Under the pieces are notes generated by a model, which worked only from the letters and a program-made list of their open reading frames with translations, was not told the DNA's origin and did no database searches. From the NCBI RefSeq assembly GCF_003334335.1, contig NZ_QOWQ01000038.1: a DNA stretch of 40,690 nt; one strand, given 5' to 3'. Positions within the stretch are counted from its first letter, which is position 1. Every line of letters starts with the position of its first letter. A program made the position numbers and the translations under genes. The DNA is from Escherichia coli. Its GTDB lineage: Bacteria; Pseudomonadota; Gammaproteobacteria; Enterobacterales; Enterobacteriaceae. Shown here one piece after another: positions 3,844 through 39,680 of the stretch.

Positions 3844-4143
3844 TTAACGCATGGAAAGATGCAAAAAATGGCCATCCGCGTCAAAAGAACAGACAAACTG
3901 CTCTTTACGGAAGGTATAACCGCGCATTTCATAGCTTCCCTGGAACTGTTCGAAGGCGGTGACGTCGATTTTTTGCTCGCCGGTGTTATAACGTTTTGCT
4001 GCCTGATCCTTGCATAACGCTTCCATATTCAACGAACGCAGAGGATCAACCTTTACCCGTTGTGCTTTCTGCACGGGTGACGGTATAGAACAACCCACTA
4101 GCACCATAAGCGCCATTGCCGGAAAGAAAGCGTTCATCATCAT
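3844..4143 (-). CDS. ysaB: Small lipoprotein YsaB
   Basis: 99-aa ORF with a signal peptide and lipobox (LVGC-S). Same strand and upstream of glyQ. Confidence 0.8.
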   Translation of the reverse strand: MMMNAFFPAMALMVLVGCSIPSPVQKAQRVKVDPLRSLNMEALCKDQAAKRYNTGEQKIDVTAFEQFQGSYEMRGYTFRKEQFVCSFDADGHFLHLSMR

Positions 4144-4317
4144 TAAATTACCGTCTGGTTTGCAGGTGAGTCTTATTATTTATATCGGTATAGTGGCTGA
4201 TATCTTACGAATTTCCTTAAGCCTCTATAAGCTGTAGTGATAAAACTCAGATTATTCCAGTGCGCCAACCAAATGATTTATCGGTCAGACTTTTTTTAAC
4301 CAGATACAGAGACACAG

Positions 4318-5313
4318 ATGCAGCCCAAAATTTACTGGATTGATAACCTGCGAGGGATAGCGTGTTTAATGGTGGTGATGATTCACACCACTACCTGGTA
4401 TGTGACCAATGCTCATAGTGTTAGCCCCGTCACATGGGATATCGCCAATGTTCTGAATTCTGCCTCTCGTGTCAGCGTGCCGCTATTTTTCATGATTTCC
4501 GGCTATCTCTTTTTTGGCGAACGCAGCGCCCAGCCGCGCCATTTCTTGCGTATCGGCTTATGTCTGATTTTTTATAGCGCAATCGCACTGCTCTACATTG
4601 CGCTGTTTACCTCCATCAATATGGAGTTAGCGCTGAAAAACCTGCTGCAAAAGCCAGTGTTTTACCACTTGTGGTTTTTCTTCGCGATTGCGGTGATTTA
4701 TCTGGTTTCACCGCTGATTCAGGTGAAGAACGTCGGCGGAAAAATGTTGCTGGTGCTAATGGCGGTGATTGGCATTATCGCTAACCCAAACACAGTGCCG
4801 CAGAAAATTGACGGTTTTGAATGGCTGCCAATTAACTTATATATCAATGGCGATACTTTTTACTACATTCTGTATGGCATGTTGGGCCGCGCTATAGGGA
4901 TGATGGACACACAGCATAAAGCACTGTCGTGGGTGAGCGCCGCGCTGTTTGCGACGGGGGTTTTTATTATCTCTCGCGGGACATTATATGAATTGCAGTG
5001 GCGCGGAAATTTTGCCGATACCTGGTATCTTTACTGTGGGCCGATGGTTTTTATCTGCGCAATCGCGCTATTGACTCTGGTTAAAAACACGCTGGATACG
5101 CGTACCATTCGCGGACTTGGCTTAATCTCCCGCCATTCATTGGGTATATACGGATTCCACGCCTTGATTATCCATGCGCTGCGCACCCGGGGAATTGAGC
5201 TTAAAAATTGGCCAATACTGGATATTATTTGGATCTTTTGCGCGACGTTGGCAGCGAGTTTGTTACTTTCTATGCTGGTACAACGAATCGACAGAAACAG
5301 ATTAGTGAGTTAA
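4318..5313 (+). CDS. wecH: Acyltransferase-3 family O-acetyltransferase (enterobacterial common antigen O-acetylation, WecH/YiaH)
   Basis: 331-aa polytopic membrane protein, acyltransferase-3-like N-terminus ([17 protein letters not shown]). Position matches K-12 yiaH. Confidence 0.85.
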
Positions 5314-5318
5314 GTAAA

Positions 5319-5346
5319 AGCCCGGTCACATTGGACTGACCGGGCT
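5319..5346. terminator. Bidirectional hairpin terminator between convergent wecH and yiaA
   Basis: 10-bp perfect inverted repeat agcccggtca / tgaccgggct with an 8-nt loop, 6 nt after the wecH stop and 9 nt after the yiaA stop. Confidence 0.5.
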
Positions 5347-5354
5347 TACGTGAG

Positions 5355-5792
5355 TTATTCGCTGTATTCTTCCTGGGTAACCTGTGTTTCTTTTGGTGGG
5401 TTTATTCCGGCATCACGAATATTTTTCTGCACCGCTACTGCACCAAACAAGCTTAAGAAGAAAGCCAGTCCATAAAAACCTTTTTCGCTGAGTAATAATG
5501 TCGCATTCCACAGACCTACCATCAGTAATGCAACAGAGATAATAAAGACAGTCAGGCAGGTCATATAATAAATGGAAGTGGTCGGTATGCCTTCATACTT
5601 GTCCCGAACGGTCTTTTGATAAGACGCCGCAGAAAACAGTCCTAATACCAGTACGGCAAAATAATATCCTTTTTCATTTAACTGCATCTCTGCATTCCAT
5701 AGCCCTAACAGATAGGTAACGATACCACCAACGAGAGCTATCCATGACACAATACTAAAGGCCGGTGAATAGGTTGATATTTTGTTGTCCAT
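5355..5792 (-). CDS. yiaA: Inner membrane protein YiaA (YiaAB two-domain family)
   Basis: ORF-track frame 5355..5795. Second ATG chosen to give about 145 aa. Hydrophobic, predicted multi-TM. Confidence 0.8.
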
Positions 5793-5837
5793 CACAGTAT
5801 TCCTTTCATTCCTGAATATGTAAGAGCTTTATGTTGC

Positions 5838-6179
5838 TCATGCCGAGCGAAACAAACGCATTTGACCAAACAAGCAGACAAAAAAGGCGATGGGATAGAT
5901 CACCATTTCATAAGTATTGATAGGTGCGTTTAAAACACCGATAAACAAGAGACCGATAGTGATTAACGCAACTAACTGGCAGATATGGGTAAAAAAATCA
6001 TCCAGTTGCCCGAGTTTTTCTGCGCGAAGATATGCATAGTTGCCAAAAGTTGCTGTCATTAACACGCCAAGAAAATAGCCTTTTCCACTTAACAATGGGC
6101 ATGAGATCCATAGCCCAACCAGATAAACCAGCGCCCCGACAACAAATAATAGTTTTGCCACAGTCTTTGAGGTTTTCAT
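5838..6179 (-). CDS. yiaB: Inner membrane protein YiaB (paralog of YiaA)
   Basis: ORF-track frame 5838..6221. Internal ATG at 6177-6179 (MKTSKTVAKLLF...) is preceded by a GGAG Shine-Dalgarno and gives 113 aa. Confidence 0.8.
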   Translation of the reverse strand: MKTSKTVAKLLFVVGALVYLVGLWISCPLLSGKGYFLGVLMTATFGNYAYLRAEKLGQLDDFFTHICQLVALITIGLLFIGVLNAPINTYEMVIYPIAFFVCLFGQMRLFRSA

Positions 6180-18135: not shown

Positions 18136-19389
18136 ATGACATTCTCCCTTTTTGGTGACAAATTTACCCGCCACTCCGGCATTACGCTGTTGATGGAAGA
18201 TCTGAACGACGGTTTACGCACGCCTGGCGCGATTATGCTCGGCGGCGGTAATCCGGCGCAGATCCCGGAAATGCAGGACTACTTCCAGACGCTACTGACC
18301 GACATGCTGGAAAGTGGCAAAGCGACTGATGCACTGTGTAACTACGACGGTCCACAGGGGAAAACGGAGCTACTCACACTGCTTGCCGGAATGCTGCGCG
18401 AGAAGTTGGGTTGGGATATCGAACCACAGAATATTGCACTAACAAACGGCAGCCAGAGCGCGTTTTTCTACTTATTTAACCTGTTTGCCGGACGCCGTGC
18501 CGATGGTCGGGTCAAAAAAGTGCTGTTCCCGCTTGCACCGGAATACATTGGCTATGCTGACGCCGGACTGGAAGAAGATCTGTTTGTCTCTGCGCGTCCG
18601 AATATTGAACTGCTGCCGGAAGGCCAGTTTAAATACCACGTCGATTTTGAGCATCTGCATATTGGCGAAGAAACCGGGATGATTTGCGTCTCCCGGCCGA
18701 CGAATCCAACAGGCAATGTGATTACTGACGAAGAGTTGCTGAAGCTTGACGCGCTGGCGAATCAACACGGCATTCCGCTGGTGATTGATAACGCTTATGG
18801 CGTCCCGTTCCCGGGTATCATCTTCAGTGAAGCGCGCCCGCTATGGAATCCGAATATCGTGCTGTGCATGAGTCTTTCCAAGCTGGGTCTACCTGGCTCC
18901 CGCTGCGGCATTATCATCGCCAATGAAAAAATCATCACCGCCATCACCAATATGAACGGCATTATCAGCCTGGCACCTGGCGGTATTGGTCCGGCGATGA
19001 TGTGTGAAATGATTAAGCGTAACGATCTGCTGCGCCTGTCTGAAACAGTCATCAAACCGTTTTACTACCAGCGTGTTCAGGAAACTATCGCCATCATTCG
19101 CCGCTATTTACCGGAAAATCGCTGCCTGATTCATAAACCGGAAGGAGCCATTTTCCTCTGGCTATGGTTTAAGGATTTGCCCATTACGACCGAGCAGCTC
19201 TATCAGCGCCTGAAAGCACGCGGCGTGCTGATGGTGCCGGGGCACAACTTCTTCCCAGGGCTGGATAAACCGTGGCCGCATACGCATCAATGTATGCGCA
19301 TGAACTACGTACCAGAGCCGGAGAAAATTGAGGCGGGGGTGAAGATTCTGGCGGAAGAGATAGAAAGAGCCTGGGCTGAAAGTCACTAA
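18136..19389 (+). CDS. avtA: Valine--pyruvate aminotransferase
   Basis: ORF-track frame 18031..19389. Start placed at ATG 18136 (MTFSLFGDKFTRHSGITLLMEDL...), giving 417 aa. Confidence 0.93.
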   Translation: MTFSLFGDKFTRHSGITLLMEDLNDGLRTPGAIMLGGGNPAQIPEMQDYFQTLLTDMLESGKATDALCNYDGPQGKTELLTLLAGMLREKLGWDIEPQNIALTNGSQSAFFYLFNLFAGRRADGRVKKVLFPLAPEYIGYADAGLEEDLFVSARPNIELLPEGQFKYHVDFEHLHIGEETGMICVSRPTNPTGNVITDEELLKLDALANQHGIPLVIDNAYGVPFPGIIFSEARPLWNPNIVLCMSLSKLGLPGSRCGIIIANEKIITAITNMNGIISLAPGGIGPAMMCEMIKRNDLLRLSETVIKPFYYQRVQETIAIIRRYLPENRCLIHKPEGAIFLWLWFKDLPITTEQLYQRLKARGVLMVPGHNFFPGLDKPWPHTHQCMRMNYVPEPEKIEAGVKILAEEIERAWAESH

Positions 19390-19395
19390 AAATTG

Positions 19396-19492
19396 CCTGA
19401 TGCGCTACGCTTATCAGGCCTACATGATTTCTGCAATATATTGAATTTGGAAGAATTTGTAGGCCGGATAAGGCGTTTACGCCGCATCTGGC
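19396..19492. repeat. BIME: two inverted REP elements
   Basis: gcctgatgcgctacgcttatcaggcctac (19396-19424) and gtaggccggataaggcgtttacgccgcatctggc (19459-19492). Confidence 0.65.
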
Positions 19493-19510
19493 ATAAACAA
19501 AGCGCACTGT

Positions 19511-19534
19511 TCCGGCGTTGAGAAACGCCGGAAA
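19511..19534. terminator. Hairpin between convergent avtA and ysaA
   Basis: ttccggcgtt-gaga-aacgccggaa perfect 10-bp stem. No strong U-tract on either strand. Confidence 0.35.
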
Positions 19535-19539
19535 ACGTT

Positions 19540-20013
19540 TCAAACAGGCTGCTGCCGTAGCCGATGCCGCTGCACTTTCTCGACATCCATGCACTGCAAC
19601 GCCTTTGTCGGGCAGGCTTCAACACAGGCCGGTCCCGTCTCCCGATGCCAGCACAGATCGCACTTAATCGCCCTCGCCTTTTTGCGCGAAGAAACGACCT
19701 CCATCGCACCAAACGGGCAAGCCAGCATACAGCTTTTACAGCCAATGCAACGTGTTTGTTCAACGAAAATATGCCCATGTTCGCGGCTTATCGCGTCAAC
19801 AGGGCAGACATTCGCGCACGGTGCATCTTCACACTGATGACAGGCTACTGCCGTGGTCCAGCAGTGGTCTTTAATGACACGAATACGGGAAATAAACTCG
19901 TCTGGTGACAACGCAGCGCAATCCTGATTCTCATGATGCGACACTGCGCAAGCCACTTCACAGGTACGGCAACCGATACATTTCGTCGCATCCGCAATAA
20001 TAAACCGGTTCAT
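19540..20013 (-). CDS. ysaA: 4Fe-4S ferredoxin-type electron-transfer protein (HycB-like), YsaA
   Basis: Four Cys clusters of CxxCxxCxxxCP type (CIGCRTCEVAC, CHQCEDAPCANVCP, CIGCKSCMLACP, CDLC...CVEACP). Start at the ATG preceded by AAGGAG (MNRFIIADA..., 157 aa). Confidence 0.85.
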   Translation of the reverse strand: MNRFIIADATKCIGCRTCEVACAVSHHENQDCAALSPDEFISRIRVIKDHCWTTAVACHQCEDAPCANVCPVDAISREHGHIFVEQTRCIGCKSCMLACPFGAMEVVSSRKKARAIKCDLCWHRETGPACVEACPTKALQCMDVEKVQRHRLRQQPV

Positions 20014-20114
20014 GATCACTCCTTTGCACTAAAACAGCAGAGTGCCAGAGAGCGCGTCCCTACTGCTTTGATCCAACGAAGGAAATGTTAAAGTTTTGGC
20101 ACTTGTCCAAAGCG

Positions 20115-20963
20115 TTATGTGATCGCGCCCAGGTCATCCCTGACAGTAAATCCCAGTTCATTAGAAATAGCCTGCGCGGTTTCACGCAGTGGTTTCAGGA
20201 GATTTTTCTCTCCCACCTGTTTCAGACGTGATGTCGAAAGCGAAATCGACACGGCGTACGGCACCCGCCCATGAATATCAAACACCGGAACAGCAATACA
20301 GGAGACGCCGAGTTCGTTTTCTTCTCTGTCCATCGCCGCTCCGCTTTCACGAATGTGCGCCAGTTCGTCGAACATCGCGGGCAGCTCGGTAATGGTATTG
20401 CGGGTTAACGGCTGGATCTCATGCTGATGGCTTTCCCAGTATGACTTCACGTAGTCCGGGTGACCAAACGCCATGTAGATCTTGCCCATTGCGGAACAGT
20501 AGAGCGGCATATGCTGGCCAATATAGGCACGGGTTCGCAGCATCCCGGTTGTGGGTTCCAGCTTATAAATCAAAATAGCGTGATCGTCTTCGCGGCTGGA
20601 GAAGTTAATGGTTTCACCAGTGGCGATGTTCAGTGCCTCAAGATGCGGAGCGGCGATATGAATGATATTCAGCGAAGACAGCGCCTTCTGCCCGACGGCA
20701 ATAAATTTGGTGGTCAGGCGATAACTCCCTGCGGCAGGCGCGGTGGTCACATAGCCGCAGGACTGTAATCCCTGCAATAAGCGATGGACGGTACTCTTAT
20801 TTAAACCAGCCAGCTCCGAAAGATGCGCCAACGGACAACCGTTTGGATAGTTGCTCAAAATCTCAATCAGCATCAACCCGCGAAACAGACTCTGGCTTCC
20901 GGCTGGACGCTCTTTTTCCTGCGCCATCTCGTTCTCTTTTTTTCCCATCACTTCTTTCCCCAT
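20115..20963 (-). CDS. yiaJ: IclR-family transcriptional repressor of the yiaK-sgbE operon
   Basis: 282 aa with N-terminal HTH and C-terminal IclR effector domain. Divergent from yiaK. Confidence 0.9.
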   Translation of the reverse strand: MGKEVMGKKENEMAQEKERPAGSQSLFRGLMLIEILSNYPNGCPLAHLSELAGLNKSTVHRLLQGLQSCGYVTTAPAAGSYRLTTKFIAVGQKALSSLNIIHIAAPHLEALNIATGETINFSSREDDHAILIYKLEPTTGMLRTRAYIGQHMPLYCSAMGKIYMAFGHPDYVKSYWESHQHEIQPLTRNTITELPAMFDELAHIRESGAAMDREENELGVSCIAVPVFDIHGRVPYAVSISLSTSRLKQVGEKNLLKPLRETAQAISNELGFTVRDDLGAIT

Positions 20964-21163
20964 TTTGTCGCGTCCTGATGGTAGCGCAAAGTGTGCCGTA
21001 GTTCACGATCTCGACAGATAATTTATAACCAATTGATTTTTATGTCTTTTGAAATTCATCAATCAGATTGCTTTGTTAAAAAGTGATCGATATATTTGAA
21101 ATCAAGTTTCGCATATTGAAATTTTAAGCCAAAAAAGCGATCAAAAAAACAAGGAAGCCTGGG
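20964..21163. promoter_or_regulatory. yiaJ / yiaK divergent control region
   Basis: CRP-like site GTGTGccgtagTTCACG around 20990-21007. Three direct TTGAAAT repeats at 21049, 21096 and 21116. Confidence 0.5.
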
Positions 21164-22162
21164 ATGAAAGTGACATTTGAGCAGTTAAAAGCAGCCTTTA
21201 ATCGGGTCTTAATTTCACGCGGCGTTGACAGCGAAACGGCTGACGCCTGTGCAGAGATGTTCGCCCGCACCACCGAATCCGGCGTTTATTCTCACGGCGT
21301 TAATCGTTTCCCTCGTTTCATTCAACAACTGGAAAACGGCGATATCATTCCTGATGCCCAACCCAAACGTATAACCAGCCTCGGCGCAATTGAACAGTGG
21401 GACGCCCAGCGTTCGATCGGTAACCTGACAGCGAAAAAGATGATGGATCGCGCCATTGAACTGGCTGCCGATCACGGTATTGGTCTGGTGGCACTACGTA
21501 ATGCCAACCACTGGATGCGCGGCGGCAGCTACGGCTGGCAGGCGGCGGAAAAAGGCTATATTGGCATTTGCTGGACCAACTCCATCGCCGTAATGCCGCC
21601 GTGGGGCGCAAAAGAGTGTCGCATCGGCACTAACCCGCTGATCGTCGCCATTCCTTCCACGCCGATCACCATGGTCGATATGTCGATGTCGATGTTCTCT
21701 TACGGCATGTTAGAAGTTAACCGTCTGGCAGGTCGTCAGCTCCCGGTCGATGGTGGCTTTGATGATGAGGGCAATTTGACCAAAGAACCTGGCGTTATCG
21801 AGAAGAATCGCCGCATTTTGCCGATGGGCTACTGGAAAGGTTCTGGCATGTCGATTGTGCTGGATATGATCGCTACTCTCCTTTCCGACGGCGCATCCGT
21901 TGCCGAAGTCACCCAGGACAACAGCGACGAATACGGCATTTCACAAATTTTTATTGCCATTGAAGTGGACAAGCTTATCGACGGTCCCACCCGCGATGCC
22001 AAGCTGCAACGCATCATGGATTACGTTACTAGTGCCGAGCGTGCTGACGAAAATCAGGCCATTCGCTTACCCGGCCATGAATTTACTACCCTGCTGGCCG
22101 AAAACCGCCGTAACGGCATCACTGTTGATGACAGCGTGTGGGCCAAAATCCAGGCGTTATGA
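21164..22162 (+). CDS. yiaK: 2,3-diketo-L-gulonate reductase (Ldh2/Mdh2 family NAD(P)H oxidoreductase)
   Basis: 332 aa, recognised as YiaK. Confidence 0.93.
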
Positions 22163-36447: not shown

Positions 36448-38292
36448 TTATTTTTCCGGAAATAATAATGCGTCGCGCAATAAATGATCATTTCCACGAC
36501 GACGCGTAAAGCCAATGCGGTCAAAATATTCCAGAATCTGAATTGCCAGCTTTCGGCCTACGCCTAAGCGATCGCGGAAATCCGCCGCGCAGGTTGAACC
36601 ACACTCCTGATCGAGATCGCGGATCATATTGGCAAACTCGACAATCCGATCGTTACGGTAATAACGATCTTTAACGATCGCGGTAATTATTCCTTGCTGC
36701 GCCGCCTGGCGTAGAGTCAGGCGCATTGCCTGCTCGTCGGTTCCCGTCTCTTTTGCCAGGTCACGCACCCACCACGGTTCGTCACCAAACAGTGGCTCTG
36801 CTTTTTGCCAGATGGCCTGCTGCTCTTCGCTGAAGCCCGCTTTGTGATCTGGCAGATGCAGCCAGCCGTGATGGCTGTGGATGTCGCCGCTTTCGCGCAT
36901 CTTTTCAATCAGCAACAGTACCAGCGCTTCATCTTCCATTGGCAACGCCATACGTCGCAGACGTTCGCGCCCAGGGCCAGGTTCATCGCGATGTTGCTCA
37001 TGATAAGTCGCTAATGTGTCGAGAATTTTCCGCTGCCAGCGGGCGGCAACCGGCGCATTCAACAAGCTATAACCAGCCTGAATATAACCAGGCTGTTGCA
37101 GCAATTCGCGCATCCCTTCGCCGTTGAGCTGGCGCGCCCAGGCGAAATCCGCAAGGTTAACCGCGCCGCGTTCCAGATGAACAGATAACGCATCGGCATC
37201 GCTCTGCGCCCGTGCAAGAGACGCCAGCCATTGCAGATATTCCGGCTTACGTTTACCGCGACGCGGCGGGTTAAGCATCACGACGCGCGCTCCGGCCAGC
37301 GTGTTGCGGGCAGAGATATCGCGCAATACCAGGCGGTCGTTATCTGCCAGCCATAACGGGGTGTCGAAGACCAGTTCAGCAAGGTTATCTTCCAGCAGTG
37401 AAACGCGTCCCGTGACGTGGCTGGCGGCGTGGTGAATATGCAGCGGCTGCCACTGGGTCAGCGGTGTATGGGTTTGAAGCTCGACAATCACCCGTGTGAA
37501 CGGCTCTGGCGGCACATCGGCAAGCAGCCAGTCGCCACGGTTAATCTGCTCTTTTTCCGCATCACCCGCGATGTTAAGCGCGATACGCTGCCCGGCATTG
37601 GCGGTTTCTGTTGGCTGGTTTTGCGCATGCAGCGCACGTACACGCATCGGTTTATTTACACCAGTCAGCCAGAGTGAATCGCCTACCTTCACTTCCCCGC
37701 TTAACGCCGTACCGGTGACGACCAGCCCGGCACCTTTTACGGTAAATGCGCGGTCAATCGCGAGGCGGAAACTATGTTGGCTGGCGTGCTCGCGTTCCGG
37801 CAACTGAAGCAGATGCTCGCGCAGGGCATCCATTCCCCGACCTTCGGTTGCTGCGGTGATAAACAGTTTTGCCTCAGCAAAACCGTATTCCCGCAGAACC
37901 TCCTTTACCTGGCGTTCAACCTCATCAACACGCGCTTCGTCCACGCGATCGGCTTTGGTCAGCGCCACTGTCAGCATCGGGTTACCGGTCAGCTGCAAAA
38001 TCGCCAGATGCTCACGGGTCTGTGCCATCACGCCGTCATCGCACGCCACCACCAACAGCGCGTGATCGATACCACCAACGCCCGCCAGCATGTTGGAAAG
38101 AAACTTTTCATGACCGGGAACGTCGATAAAACCAGGCACGCGACCATCCGGCTGCGGCCAGTAGGCATAGCCGAGATCGATGGTCATGCCGCGCTTTTTT
38201 TCTTCCGGCAGACGGTCAGCATTTACGCCAGTAATCGCCTGCAATAAGGTTGTTTTGCCGTGGTCAACGTGTCCGGCAGTCGCAATAATCAT
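36448..38292 (-). CDS. selB: Selenocysteine-specific translation elongation factor
   Basis: 614 aa, N-terminal GTPase ([22 protein letters not shown]) with a long C-terminal extension. Confidence 0.95.
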
Positions 38293-39680
38293 TTCAACAA
38301 CATCTCCAAAAACCGTTGCTCATCTTCAAGGCAGCGTAAATCCAGCCACAATCGTCCGTCATAAATACGACCAATCACCGGCACTGGCAATTCACGCCAG
38401 CGGGCGGCTAATGACTCAAGGTGGCTACCGCGTCCATCATGGGGTGTAAACGTTAATGCCGCGCTCGGCAGGCGATCAACCGGCAGCGAACCACTGCCAA
38501 TCTGCGAAAGACATGGCATAACCTGTACCGCAAACTCCGCGCCGTAATGTGCGGCAAGGGGGGCCTGTAAACGTTGTGCCTGGATTTGAATGACCTCTGC
38601 GCTGCGGGTAAGCAGGCGCAGGGTCGGTAATTTTTCACTCAGAGCTTCAGGGTGTAAATAAAGACGCAACGTGGCTTCCAGCGCCGCGAGGGTCATTTTA
38701 TCCGCGCGTAATGCACGCTTCAGCGGGTGGCTTTGCAGGCGGGCGATCATCTCTTTTTTACCAACAATAATTCCTGCCTGCGGCCCGCCTAACAACTTGT
38801 CGCCGGAGAAACTCACCAGACTGACGCCCGCCGCAATCAACTCCTGCGGCATTGGCTCTTTCGGCAAACCGTACTGGCTAAGATCGACCAGCGAGCCACT
38901 GCCTAAATCAGTCACTACGGGAACATCCAGCTCTTTGCCGAGCGCCACCAGTTCCGCTTCATCTATCGCTTTGGTGAACCCCTGAATGCTGTAGTTACTG
39001 GTATGTACTTTCATCAACAGTGCGGTATTTTCATTCACCGCCTGACGATAATCATTCGCGTGCGTGCGGTTGGTGGTCCCTACTTCGTGTAGGGTGCAGC
39101 CTGCCTGACGCATAACATCGGGAATACGAAACGCGCCGCCAATCTCCACCAGTTCGCCGCGAGATACCACCACCTCTTTTCCGCTGGCAGTGGCCGCCAA
39201 CATCAATAACACCGCCGCCGCATTGTTATTGACGATACAGGCATCTTCCGCCCCCGTAATACGGCACAGCAGCTGCGCCAGCGCCCGATCGCGATGTCCG
39301 CGTCCGGCGTCGTCCAGATCATACTCGAGGGTCACTGGCGAACGCATAGCCTGCGCAACGGCTTCCACCGCGGCTTCCGCCTGTAAAGCTCGCCCAAGGT
39401 TGGTATGCAGCACGGTTCCCGTCAGGTTGATCACCGGACGCAGCGCGCTCTGCGCTTCTTTCGTCAACCGGGCATCGACTTCTTGCGCCCAGTTTTCACA
39501 CCACGCAGGCAGCGTCTGGCTGCCACGAATCACTTCTCGCGCTTCGTCGAGCATCTGACGCAACAATTCCACCACGCGGGTGTGACCATAAGTATCACGC
39601 AAAGAAAGGAAGGAGCTATCGCGCAATAAGCGATCAATAGCCGGAAGTTGACTATAGAGGGAACGCGTTTCGGTTGTCAT
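38289..39680 (-). CDS. selA: L-seryl-tRNA(Sec) selenium transferase (selenocysteine synthase)
   Basis: 463 aa, recognised as SelA. Its stop overlaps the selB start (ATGA). Confidence 0.95.

Follow-up and report, generated by a model that had tools for sequence, protein, structure and literature searches.

The closest solved relatives of YsaA, HycB of FHL (PDB 7Z0S/7Z0T, chain B) and HycB3/HycB4 of hydrogen-dependent CO2 reductase (PDB 7QV7), all wire a formate dehydrogenase. HycB, unlike YsaA, is a product of the hyc operon and indispensable for H2 production. The FHL structure paper describes HycF and HycE as contacted by a loop of HycB that lies between two of its cluster motifs; FdhF (formate dehydrogenase H) is, according to the same paper, loosely bound to FHL and easily lost. 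HycB3 and HycB4 build long filaments with [FeFe] hydrogenase in acetogens, and YsaA is not known to form anything similar. Two further relatives, AegA and YgfT, carry a four-cluster domain fused to a GltD-like flavoprotein domain, whereas YsaA consists of the domain alone; YgfS is a stand-alone protein with a YsaA-like Cys pattern.

Since 2018 the literature (PMC6004506) has covered ysaA, the family to which it belongs, its isolation and FdhF as its probable partner, and standard annotation includes them too. HydN has its closest paralogue in YsaA. Deletion of ysaA left 57% of the dye-linked FDH-H activity, the hydN ysaA double deletion 28%, an additive effect, and the hydN ysaA hycB deletion 1%; deletion of hydN acts on FDH-H activity in the same way as that of ysaA (Pinske, 2018; PMC6004506). 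The ysaA deletion was complemented by plasmid-borne ysaA or hydN, and the hydN deletion was not complemented by ysaA. H2 production was unchanged by the ysaA deletion, YsaA was not found in purified FHL, and HydN resisted over-production (PMC6004506). In two-hybrid assays, YsaA with FdhF gave 694 MU against a threshold of 600 MU, in one orientation only, while YsaA with HycB, HydN and AegA gave 3900–6150 MU; a two-hybrid signal with FdhF is common to HycB and YsaA, and the author warned that Fe-S proteins of this kind interact promiscuously (PMC6004506).

The ysaA locus

The window, a stretch of 40,690 nucleotides, is from E. coli K-12, and its interval 19390–20114 is 100% identical to MG1655. 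At least 80% of this interval is carried by 5424 of 5426 complete E. coli genomes. The window contains the following features around ysaA:

18136–19389, plus strand: avtA (valine-pyruvate aminotransferase), convergent neighbor of ysaA
19394–19493, no strand: BIME, two REP units in inverted orientation (inverted repeats I1-I3)
19510–19533, minus strand: perfect 10-bp hairpin beginning 6 nt past the ysaA stop (inverted repeat I4)
19540–20013, minus strand: ysaA (b3573) coding sequence, 157 aa plus stop (ORF, translation, RefSeq, Pfam Fer4_11)
20019–20024, minus strand: Shine-Dalgarno sequence AAGGAG of ysaA, 5 nt ahead of the ATG (read from the sequence)
20038–20074, minus strand: conserved element GGATCAAAGC-N17-CTCTGGCACTCTG upstream of ysaA (alignment of 35 species)
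20115–20963, minus strand: yiaJ/plaR (IclR-family repressor), upstream of ysaA on the same strand, with a 101-nt gap
36448–39680, minus strand: selA-selB (selenocysteine insertion genes), 16.4 kb upstream of ysaA on the same strand

The RefSeq product name of b3573 is "putative electron transport protein YsaA". The initial annotation had assigned the ferredoxin gene to the interval 19390–20114; this interval does contain ysaA, but the gene itself is shorter, the interval being the entire gap between the avtA stop at 19389 and the yiaJ stop at 20115. The surroundings are as described there: ysaA converges with avtA across a BIME, with two inverted REP units between both genes (19394–19424 and 19458–19493), the yiaJ repressor gene lies on the other side, and ysaA is solitary, an oxidoreductase gene being absent from its K-12 neighborhood. 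The fdhF gene is about 556 kb distant.

The REP core recurs three times in the window against zero recurrences expected, the interval used as a query has a median of 31 matching places per E. coli genome, and Rfam ES036 matches within the BIME. The hairpin 3' of ysaA, with a centroid fold energy of -15.9 kcal/mol, is the probable ysaA terminator. A convincing terminator was not found in the 101-nt spacer between yiaJ and ysaA, the fold of which is no better than that of shuffled sequence (z = -0.58).

Cysteine groups, fold and family assignment

Four Cys groups were located on the minus strand by regular expression and invariant alignment columns:

19948–19980, minus strand: group I, C12-x2-C15-x2-C18-x3-C22, followed by Ala instead of Pro
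19801–19842, minus strand: group II, C58-x2-C61-x4-C66-x3-C70-P71
19714–19749, minus strand: group III, C89-x2-C92-x2-C95-x3-C99-P100 (C89IGCKSCMLACP)
19609–19662, minus strand: group IV, C118-x2-C121-x8-C130-x3-C134-P135

The initial annotation reported four complete CxxCxxCxxxCP motifs. Four groups are indeed present, but only group III has the exact motif; groups I, II and IV are normal variants for the HycB-like family. All 16 Cys residues form invariant columns with HydN, HycB, HyfA, YgfS and the N-terminal domains of AegA and YgfT, are invariant among 71 aligned sequences and, together with C141, are unchanged in 34 YsaA orthologues. The suspicion that careful alignment might leave fewer than four intact groups is thus dispelled.

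Pfam Fer4_11 matches YsaA with E = 1.8e-12. Among solved structures, the top match by sequence is HycB of FHL (7z0s_B, E = 2.8e-36), followed at ranks 2 and 3 by HycB3 and HycB4. The AlphaFold2 model (pLDDT 80.2, pTM 0.74) predicts two ferredoxin-like halves, like the solved beta subunits, and its top Foldseek matches, all with probability 1.00 and TM 0.67–0.78, are 7qv7_A (E = 6.8e-14, TM 0.73), 7z0s_B (TM 0.71), 9mqx and 7qv7_B (TM 0.78). The HycB-like character claimed for YsaA is borne out both by sequence (7z0s_B) and by fold (7qv7_A and 7z0s_B, TM 0.71–0.73). Judged by Cys register and modeled fold, YsaA would belong to the Fer4_11 (HycB/DmsB/NrfC type) superfamily of four-[4Fe-4S] beta subunits.

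Neither an RRxF motif nor a transmembrane helix, as in the exported or membrane-anchored beta type (FdnH, HybA, NrfC, DmsB), could be read in YsaA. Its N-terminus, MNRFIIADATKC, leads directly into Cys group I, its C-terminus, EKVQRHRLRQQPV, is polar, and the matches to FdnH and HybA are confined to the core. YsaA is predicted from its sequence to be a soluble cytoplasmic ferredoxin-like protein with four [4Fe-4S] clusters.

HydN (b2713; NF007658) is 64% identical to YsaA and has the same four Cys groups. With 175–181 aa it is longer than YsaA (157 aa); its C-terminal tail and an insert of about 17 residues between groups III and IV have no counterpart in YsaA. Among NCBIfam models, YsaA matches that of HydN best, at 214.6 bits against a curated cutoff of 260, which is not reached, and the AegA and YgfT models rank second and third. 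HycB shares 48% identity with YsaA, and all 16 cluster ligands align. Its loop between groups III and IV is, however, about 32 residues longer (30–40 over HycB and HyfA) and is not present in YsaA, which also lacks the C-terminal tail of about 25 residues; HyfA is tailed as well. Identity to the four-cluster HycB3/HycB4 is about 40%, and to YgfS and the N-terminal ferredoxin domains of AegA and YgfT, which share the Cys pattern, 45–50%. No other member of the HycB/HydN/HyfA/YgfS group is as short as YsaA, which is the sister paralogue of HydN.

Selection and phylogeny

YsaA is under purifying selection. Its median dN/dS is 0.18 versus 0.066 for HydN, about threefold faster evolution at non-synonymous sites, and identity between E. 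coli and Citrobacter is 73–79% for YsaA versus 92–94% for HydN. The faster evolution of YsaA may reflect a role that is looser or of another kind. In a neighbor-joining tree, a distance method possibly distorted by the faster YsaA rate, YsaA and HydN together form one clade (73% bootstrap), within which HydN is monophyletic to the exclusion of YsaA (87% bootstrap). This topology and the subthreshold NCBIfam score identify YsaA as a paralogue rather than as HydN itself.

In Buttiauxella and Cedecea, hydN-fdhF(Cys)-hypF occupies the avtA site, and no YsaA-type gene was found among the best 80 loci. This arrangement prompted the idea that ysaA is a recent hydN relic at that site; the idea is not supported, as the tree does not place YsaA within enterobacterial HydN (2% bootstrap).

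Genomic context in other genomes

Gene context was compared over the best 80 loci, and the 34 YsaA-type loci were examined 8 kb to each side. No oxidoreductase or catalytic subunit is linked to ysaA in any of the 34, and hypF, fdhF and hyc were not found within this distance; hyc or hyf genes, which would mark a subunit of the HycB/HyfA type, are absent near ysaA both in K-12 and in the YsaA-type loci. Thus the partner must be encoded elsewhere, as the initial annotation had correctly concluded, while the genomes sought there, with a ysaA homolog operon-linked to a catalytic subunit, did not appear (0 of 34).

The gene downstream is constant: avtA is the convergent neighbor in every YsaA-type locus with enough downstream flank. 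The upstream gene varies (yiaJ, selB, aldB, yiaT or an AraC-type regulator) and is other than yiaJ in about half of the loci. In four species, namely Kosakonia, two related genomes and Klebsiella oxytoca, selB is directly upstream, and it is thus the gene that precedes the conserved upstream element there; selAB is needed for FdhF synthesis. In Enterobacter wuhouensis only 3 nt separate the yiaJ stop from the ysaA ATG, and, by ORF coordinates, this spacing recurs in Lelliottia and in two Enterobacter MAGs.

What lies between selAB and ysaA is variable, a slot for sugar-utilization islands that differ by genus, which is why ysaA looks solitary. This position does not mean membership of the yiaJ system, and a functional link between ysaA and yiaJ is contradicted by the variable upstream neighbor.

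The context of hydN is different. HydN loci contain hypF and often also fdhF(Cys) and hyc, whereas YsaA loci contain avtA; among the best 80 loci, ysaA was found only in Enterobacteriaceae, while the HydN range includes Yersiniaceae and Morganellaceae. In 24 HydN-type loci of this set, an fdhF paralogue that has Cys where Sec140 would be follows hydN at about 580 nt downstream, and in eight a Sec-type fdhF is present within 6.5 kb, three of these being among the 24. The context argument for fdhF as partner rests on the paralogue hydN, since none of the 34 ysaA loci is linked to fdhF.

Upstream region and expression

The element GGATCAAAGC-N17-CTCTGGCACTCTG is kept in about 30 species of Enterobacteriaceae, independently of the upstream gene. 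Among 93 loci, the pattern GATCAARG-N18-TGGCA occurs only upstream of ysaA, with constant spacing. No Rfam family matches this region, and RNAalifold over 23 species predicted zero pairs in the 5'UTR; conservation is therefore in the sequence itself, and the element may be a promoter or operator.

Membership of fdhF, hyc and hydN-hypF in the FhlA/sigma-54 formate regulon prompted a look for a sigma-54 promoter, which was rejected: the upstream CTGGCAC matches the -24 element perfectly, but GC is absent at the -12 spacing, and a genome-wide sigma-54 ChIP study lists no sites at ysaA, yiaJ or avtA. An FNR site (TTGAT-N4-ATCAA, up to two mismatches) has no match in 20014–20130; the nearest FNR-like match, at 21049–21062, belongs to the yiaJ/yiaK region, and across the window such matches are no more numerous than chance would give. 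For ysaA itself an FNR site was rejected. A sigma-70 promoter scan of 19300–21250 gave no site. A SELEX peak makes rpoE dependence of ysaA a possibility.

The gene is expressed, against the possibility, raised in the initial annotation, of silence under any condition: a published 2.7-fold anaerobic induction is quoted in a citing paper, the ysaA transcript was detected by qRT-PCR in published work, and the mapped K-12 mRNA leader reaches at least position -75.

Probable role of YsaA and alternatives

We consider it fairly probable that YsaA is an alternative small, beta-type subunit of FdhF, passing electrons to an acceptor other than hydrogenase 3 and partly redundant with HydN. YsaA would dock on FdhF and receive electrons from the [4Fe-4S] cluster of the latter, and these would run along its own four clusters to that acceptor, with HydN able to take over in part. 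The cluster content, the direct transfer from FdhF to YsaA and the acceptor are inferred, flavoenzymes of the AegA/YgfT type being the leading candidates for the last. The lack of the HycB loop between groups III and IV, the putative contact to HycF and HycE, fits with YsaA not feeding hydrogenase 3. Against FdhF as partner, the ysaA phenotype is a change in a redox-dye assay only. The weak two-hybrid signal with FdhF, the consistent lack of fdhF linkage and the faster evolution of YsaA also speak against it.

It is rather unlikely that YsaA instead partners another oxidoreductase, such as AegA/YgfT independently of FdhF, complex I via NuoE, or some other enzyme, with an indirect effect on FDH-H. 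The strongest YsaA two-hybrid signals were those with AegA (5867 and 6150 MU, roughly ninefold that with FdhF; PMC6004506), and the AegA/YgfT N-terminal domains resemble YsaA at the identity given above. AegA and YgfT, however, already own a four-cluster domain, and their route of uric-acid degradation in turn requires FdhF and formate; on both grounds this version largely merges with the FdhF model. As for complex I, a high-throughput interaction of YsaA with NuoE and RclA is cited in the literature, but the YsaA-NuoE two-hybrid values of 308–618 MU are at or below the threshold (PMC6004506). The same study reports no effect of the ysaA deletion on other molybdoenzyme activities.

An assembly or stabilization factor, holding or maturing FdhF before its entry into the complex rather than relaying electrons, is an unlikely role for YsaA. 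Pinske discusses a transient pre-assembly interaction and possible cofactor activation (PMC6004506), and the readiness with which the loosely held FdhF is lost from FHL would suit such a factor. Yet in the mutants the level and pattern of FDH-H protein were unaltered and H2 production was normal, and a maturation role was judged unlikely by Pinske (PMC6004506). The strict retention of 16 ligands in 34 orthologues is a relay requirement and more than a chaperone needs.

We regard it as distinctly unlikely that YsaA is a drifting, redundant HydN duplicate without a specific role. The weak ysaA phenotype and its complementation by hydN (PMC6004506) would agree with drift, as would the lower E. 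coli-Citrobacter identity, the higher dN/dS and the lack of a YsaA-type gene in Buttiauxella and Cedecea. However, loss of ysaA adds to the effect of losing hydN, and ysaA does not rescue the hydN deletion (PMC6004506). Moreover, dN/dS is well under 1, the 16 cluster Cys and C141 are invariant in 34 species, almost all E. coli genomes retain the gene, and it owns a conserved upstream element.

Membership of YsaA in the yiaJ (plaR)/yiaK-S sugar-acid system, by co-transcription with the repressor gene, is very improbable: the co-orientation across a 101-nt gap with no convincing terminator found, the 3-nt spacing in the Enterobacter and Lelliottia genomes, the extent of the K-12 mRNA leader and the FNR-like box in the yiaJ/yiaK control region are outweighed by an upstream gene that is often not yiaJ next to a constant avtA, by an upstream element present regardless of that gene, and by the fact that we know of no yiaK-S pathway step that needs ferredoxin.

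Significance

The observation of ysaA changes little for the field. The additions made here are modest: the linkage of hydN to fdhF(Cys) in many genera, the island slot between selAB and avtA in which ysaA lies, and the ysaA-specific upstream motif. As a tentative extension of the FdhF model, held with low confidence, ysaA might be, rather than an idle duplicate of hydN, a separately regulated branch point, controlled via GGATCAAAGC-N17-CTCTGGCACTCTG, at which formate electrons pass from FdhF to an acceptor that is not a hydrogenase; the most plausible acceptor would be the urate-degradation flavoenzymes AegA/YgfT. For an exit of formate electrons from FdhF that bypasses hydrogenase 3, the candidates named are YsaA and HydN, and this FdhF branch bears on formate-dependent urate degradation by gut bacteria and on the engineering of formate and CO2 conversion.

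The ysaA Locus

The 725-base interval between the avtA and yiaJ genes (19390-20114) matches Escherichia coli K-12 MG1655 with 100% identity. Of 5426 complete E. coli genomes, 5424 contain 80% or more of its length. The gene that RefSeq places in it is ysaA (b3573), named "putative electron transport protein YsaA". The interval covers the entire gap from the avtA stop to the yiaJ stop, not ysaA alone. Genes are arranged in the order xylR-bax-malS-avtA (+), ysaA-yiaJ(plaR) (-), followed by the divergent yiaK-sgbE operon; this order and two REP units bear out the location given in the initial annotation, between yiaJ and a convergent avtA with a BIME in the gap. The main features are:

19389, end of avtA, convergent with ysaA
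19394-19424 and 19458-19493, two REP units, inverted relative to each other, that form the avtA-ysaA BIME
19416-19458 (-), Rfam match to ES036/CssrF sRNA inside this BIME (46.1 bits; gathering score 37.6)
19510-19533, perfect 10-bp hairpin 3' of the ysaA stop (centroid energy -15.9 kcal/mol)
19540-20013 (-), ysaA coding sequence, 157 aa
20038-20074 (-), conserved element upstream of ysaA, K-12 positions
36448-39680 (-), selA-selB, upstream of ysaA

The REP core occurs three times in the window, with none expected, and its repetition accounts for the median of 31 matches of the interval per E. coli genome. The ES036/CssrF match is probably REP-associated, and the hairpin is probably the ysaA terminator. 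A mechanical ORF list contains an alternative GTG start two codons upstream, but the ATG at 20013 appears the better start because AAGGAG lies 5 nt before it and all homologues begin with MN.F. The antisense ORFs over ysaA in this list (82 and 114 aa) look spurious.

Conservation of the Gene Neighborhood

One genome per species was scanned, the best 80 loci were retained, and neighboring genes were classified by tblastn with E. coli reference proteins and ORF inspection. Genes closer to YsaA than to its sister paralogue HydN were considered YsaA-type. Among the best 80 loci, 34 are YsaA-type, all from Enterobacteriaceae, and look-ups of Salmonella, Enterobacter, and Raoultella showed the same arrangement. 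avtA is convergent downstream in every YsaA-type locus with enough downstream flank. The co-directional upstream neighbor is variable: yiaJ in about half of the 34 loci, and elsewhere selB, aldB, yiaT, or an AraC-type regulator accompanied by another sugar island. selB lies directly upstream of ysaA in Kosakonia sacchari and two relatives (gap of about 130-150 nt) and in Klebsiella oxytoca (loci L024, L025, L027, and L060). The constant avtA and variable upstream neighbor therefore define a constant frame, selA-selB, a variable island, and ysaA facing avtA-malS-bax-xylR, in which the selAB-ysaA segment is a variable slot for sugar-utilisation islands. The K-12 island between selAB and ysaA spans 16.4 kb on the same strand. 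The selA-selB genes are required for making the selenoprotein FdhF, formate dehydrogenase H (FDH-H).

No catalytic subunit is encoded within 8 kb of ysaA in any of the 34 YsaA-type loci, and this comparison across genomes upholds the earlier description of ysaA as having no linked oxidoreductase.

In Enterobacter wuhouensis (locus L037, 7990-8003) the yiaJ stop and the ysaA ATG are 3 nt apart, with GAGG just upstream, and judging by ORF coordinates Lelliottia and two Enterobacter MAGs share this spacing (L029, L042, and L066). Such spacing implies co-transcription of yiaJ and ysaA in these four.

Structure and Relationships of YsaA

Sixteen cysteines of YsaA form four groups:

Group I, CxxCxxCxxxC, then Ala
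Group II, CxxCx4CxxxCP
Group III, CxxCxxCxxxCP (C89-C99-P)
Group IV, CxxCx8CxxxCP

The initial annotation had ascribed to YsaA four complete CxxCxxCxxxCP motifs; the four groups and 16 invariant cysteines stand, while the literal pattern occurs in group III only. These cysteines never vary when YsaA is aligned with HydN, HycB, HyfA, YgfS, and the N-terminal domains of AegA and YgfT; they are likewise invariant over 71 sequences and in the 34 YsaA orthologues. A 17th cysteine, C141, is invariant in 34/34 orthologues and common to HydN.

Pfam assigns YsaA to Fer4_11, and the top NCBIfam models are HydN (214.6 bits, below the cutoff of 260), AegA, and YgfT. The nearest solved structures by sequence are HycB of formate hydrogenlyase (FHL) (7z0s_B, E = 2.8e-36) and HycB3/HycB4 of hydrogen-dependent CO2 reductase; the same chains are the best matches (TM 0.71-0.78) of an AlphaFold2 model built from the 71-sequence alignment (pLDDT 80, pTM 0.74). 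The YsaA translation contains neither a twin-arginine signal nor a membrane helix, and on this basis YsaA is expected to be a soluble protein of the cytoplasm.

YsaA is the shortest of the aligned E. coli group. HycB and HyfA carry a loop of 30-40 residues between groups III and IV and a C-terminal tail, both absent from YsaA, which also lacks the shorter insert of HydN between these groups. The FHL structure paper describes extensive contacts of HycF and HycE with a loop of HycB that lies between two of its cluster motifs. This is presumably the loop missing in YsaA; if so, its absence would account for YsaA not feeding hydrogenase 3.

In a neighbor-joining tree YsaA groups with HydN (73% bootstrap) and HydN is monophyletic (87%), while nesting of YsaA inside enterobacterial HydN was not seen (2%). 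YsaA is under purifying selection and evolves faster than HydN, with a median dN/dS of 0.18 vs. 0.066 and 51 of 157 vs. 107 of 181 invariant residues. Between E. coli and Citrobacter, identity is 73-79% for YsaA, 92-94% for HydN, and 93-94% for the neighboring AvtA. Across loci L013-L039 the divergence of YsaA is unusually fast for a conserved enterobacterial protein.

Candidate Electron Transfer Partner

The initial annotation rightly placed the partner of YsaA elsewhere in the genome, and FdhF is an already published candidate (Pinske, 2018; PMC6004506). That study started from the location of ysaA and aegA far from any oxidoreductase operon and named YsaA as the closest HydN paralogue. Benzyl-viologen-linked FDH-H activity was 57% in a ysaA deletion, 28% in a hydN ysaA double deletion, and 1% upon additional deletion of hycB; plasmid-borne ysaA or hydN restored the activity of the ysaA deletion. 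H2 production and the FDH-H protein level were unaltered. The two-hybrid signal of YsaA with FdhF was weak (694 MU vs. a threshold of 600 MU), and signals were strong with HycB, HydN, HycF, and most of all AegA (~6000 MU). The author concluded that HydN and YsaA serve as alternative beta subunits and deliver FdhF electrons to non-hydrogen-producing acceptors. Later papers on YsaA only cite this work. A role in urate degradation dependent on formate and FdhF has been reported for AegA and YgfT, and a 2025 FocA review mentions unpublished evidence for HydN as a structural component of Trabulsiella FHL-2.

HydN-type genes are spread across Enterobacterales. In 24 hydN loci (e.g., L044-L047, L057, L061, L070, L074-L078, L081, and L092) an fdhF paralogue, fdhF(Cys), lies about 580 nt downstream of hydN and is followed by hypF; its product is 65-68% identical to FdhF, with Cys at position 140 instead of selenocysteine. 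A selenocysteine-type (TGA) fdhF is located within 6.5 kb of hydN in eight loci: about 6.2 kb downstream, alongside the Cys-type copy, in Leclercia and two Silvania species, and 4-5.5 kb upstream in Morganellaceae. This linkage generalises the single hydN-fdhF case named by Pinske (2018), Serratia liquefaciens, and is the best genomic argument that the HydN/YsaA subfamily serves FdhF-type enzymes.

In Cedecea, Buttiauxella, and "Enterobacter sp. Ag1" (L040, L041, L053, and L067) a hyc-hydN-fdhF(Cys)-hypF cluster convergent with avtA occupies the chromosomal position of E. coli ysaA, and none of them has a YsaA-type gene among the best 80 loci. Descent of ysaA as a recent relic of such a cluster finds no support in the tree; the simpler reading is that the slot beside avtA accepts different islands.

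Expression and Upstream Region

Published data establish that ysaA is expressed: an anaerobic induction of 2.7-fold is cited by Pinske (2018), the transcript was detected by qRT-PCR, and a MazF-regulon paper places a MazF cleavage site 75 nt ahead of the ysaA start codon. This site coincides with an ACA located exactly at -75 (20086-20088, -), so the leader of the ysaA mRNA extends to this position or beyond, whether transcription begins close to the yiaJ stop or reads through from yiaJ. Another group used "ysaA-aRNA", the antisense RNA of ysaA (19540-20013, +), as a qPCR control; antisense transcription over ysaA has thus already been reported.

Scans of the 101-nt yiaJ-ysaA spacer found neither a sigma-70 consensus promoter nor an FNR box or a terminator. 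A 35-species alignment revealed in this spacer a conserved element, GGATCAAAGC-N17-CTCTGGCACTCTG with a T-run after it, which stops about 25-30 nt short of the ysaA ATG and is kept at fixed spacing in about 30 Enterobacteriaceae species regardless of the upstream gene. Among 93 loci searched, GATCAARG-N18-TGGCA matched only upstream of ysaA, at constant spacing, and was not found upstream of hydN, fdhF, aegA, ygfT, or hyc. The element is missing in E. wuhouensis, Lelliottia, and the two Enterobacter MAGs with the 3-nt gap, and also in E. cloacae, where the upstream gene is different. A full sigma-54 promoter was rejected (it lacks the GC at -12, and ChIP work lists no site), as were an RNA structure, which is not conserved, and an FNR site, given the lack of an FNR box in the spacer. 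In a genomic SELEX study, RNA polymerase-RpoE gave a weak peak within the spacer. An FNR-like palindrome, TTGAAATTCATCAA, with one mismatch to TTGAT-N4-ATCAA, is present at 21049-21062 in the yiaJ/yiaK divergent control region; the window-wide count of FNR-like matches is not above chance.

Proposed Role of YsaA

Overall, the gene is real and its situation was described correctly, save for the over-literal motif count. On balance, we give a modest preference to a role in which YsaA, as an alternative small subunit partly redundant with HydN, would accept electrons from FdhF and hand them to an acceptor other than a hydrogenase. The finding is an ordinary one that the literature already contains, including FdhF as the candidate partner; the remaining interest lies in the electron acceptor of YsaA and the conserved element upstream of its gene.
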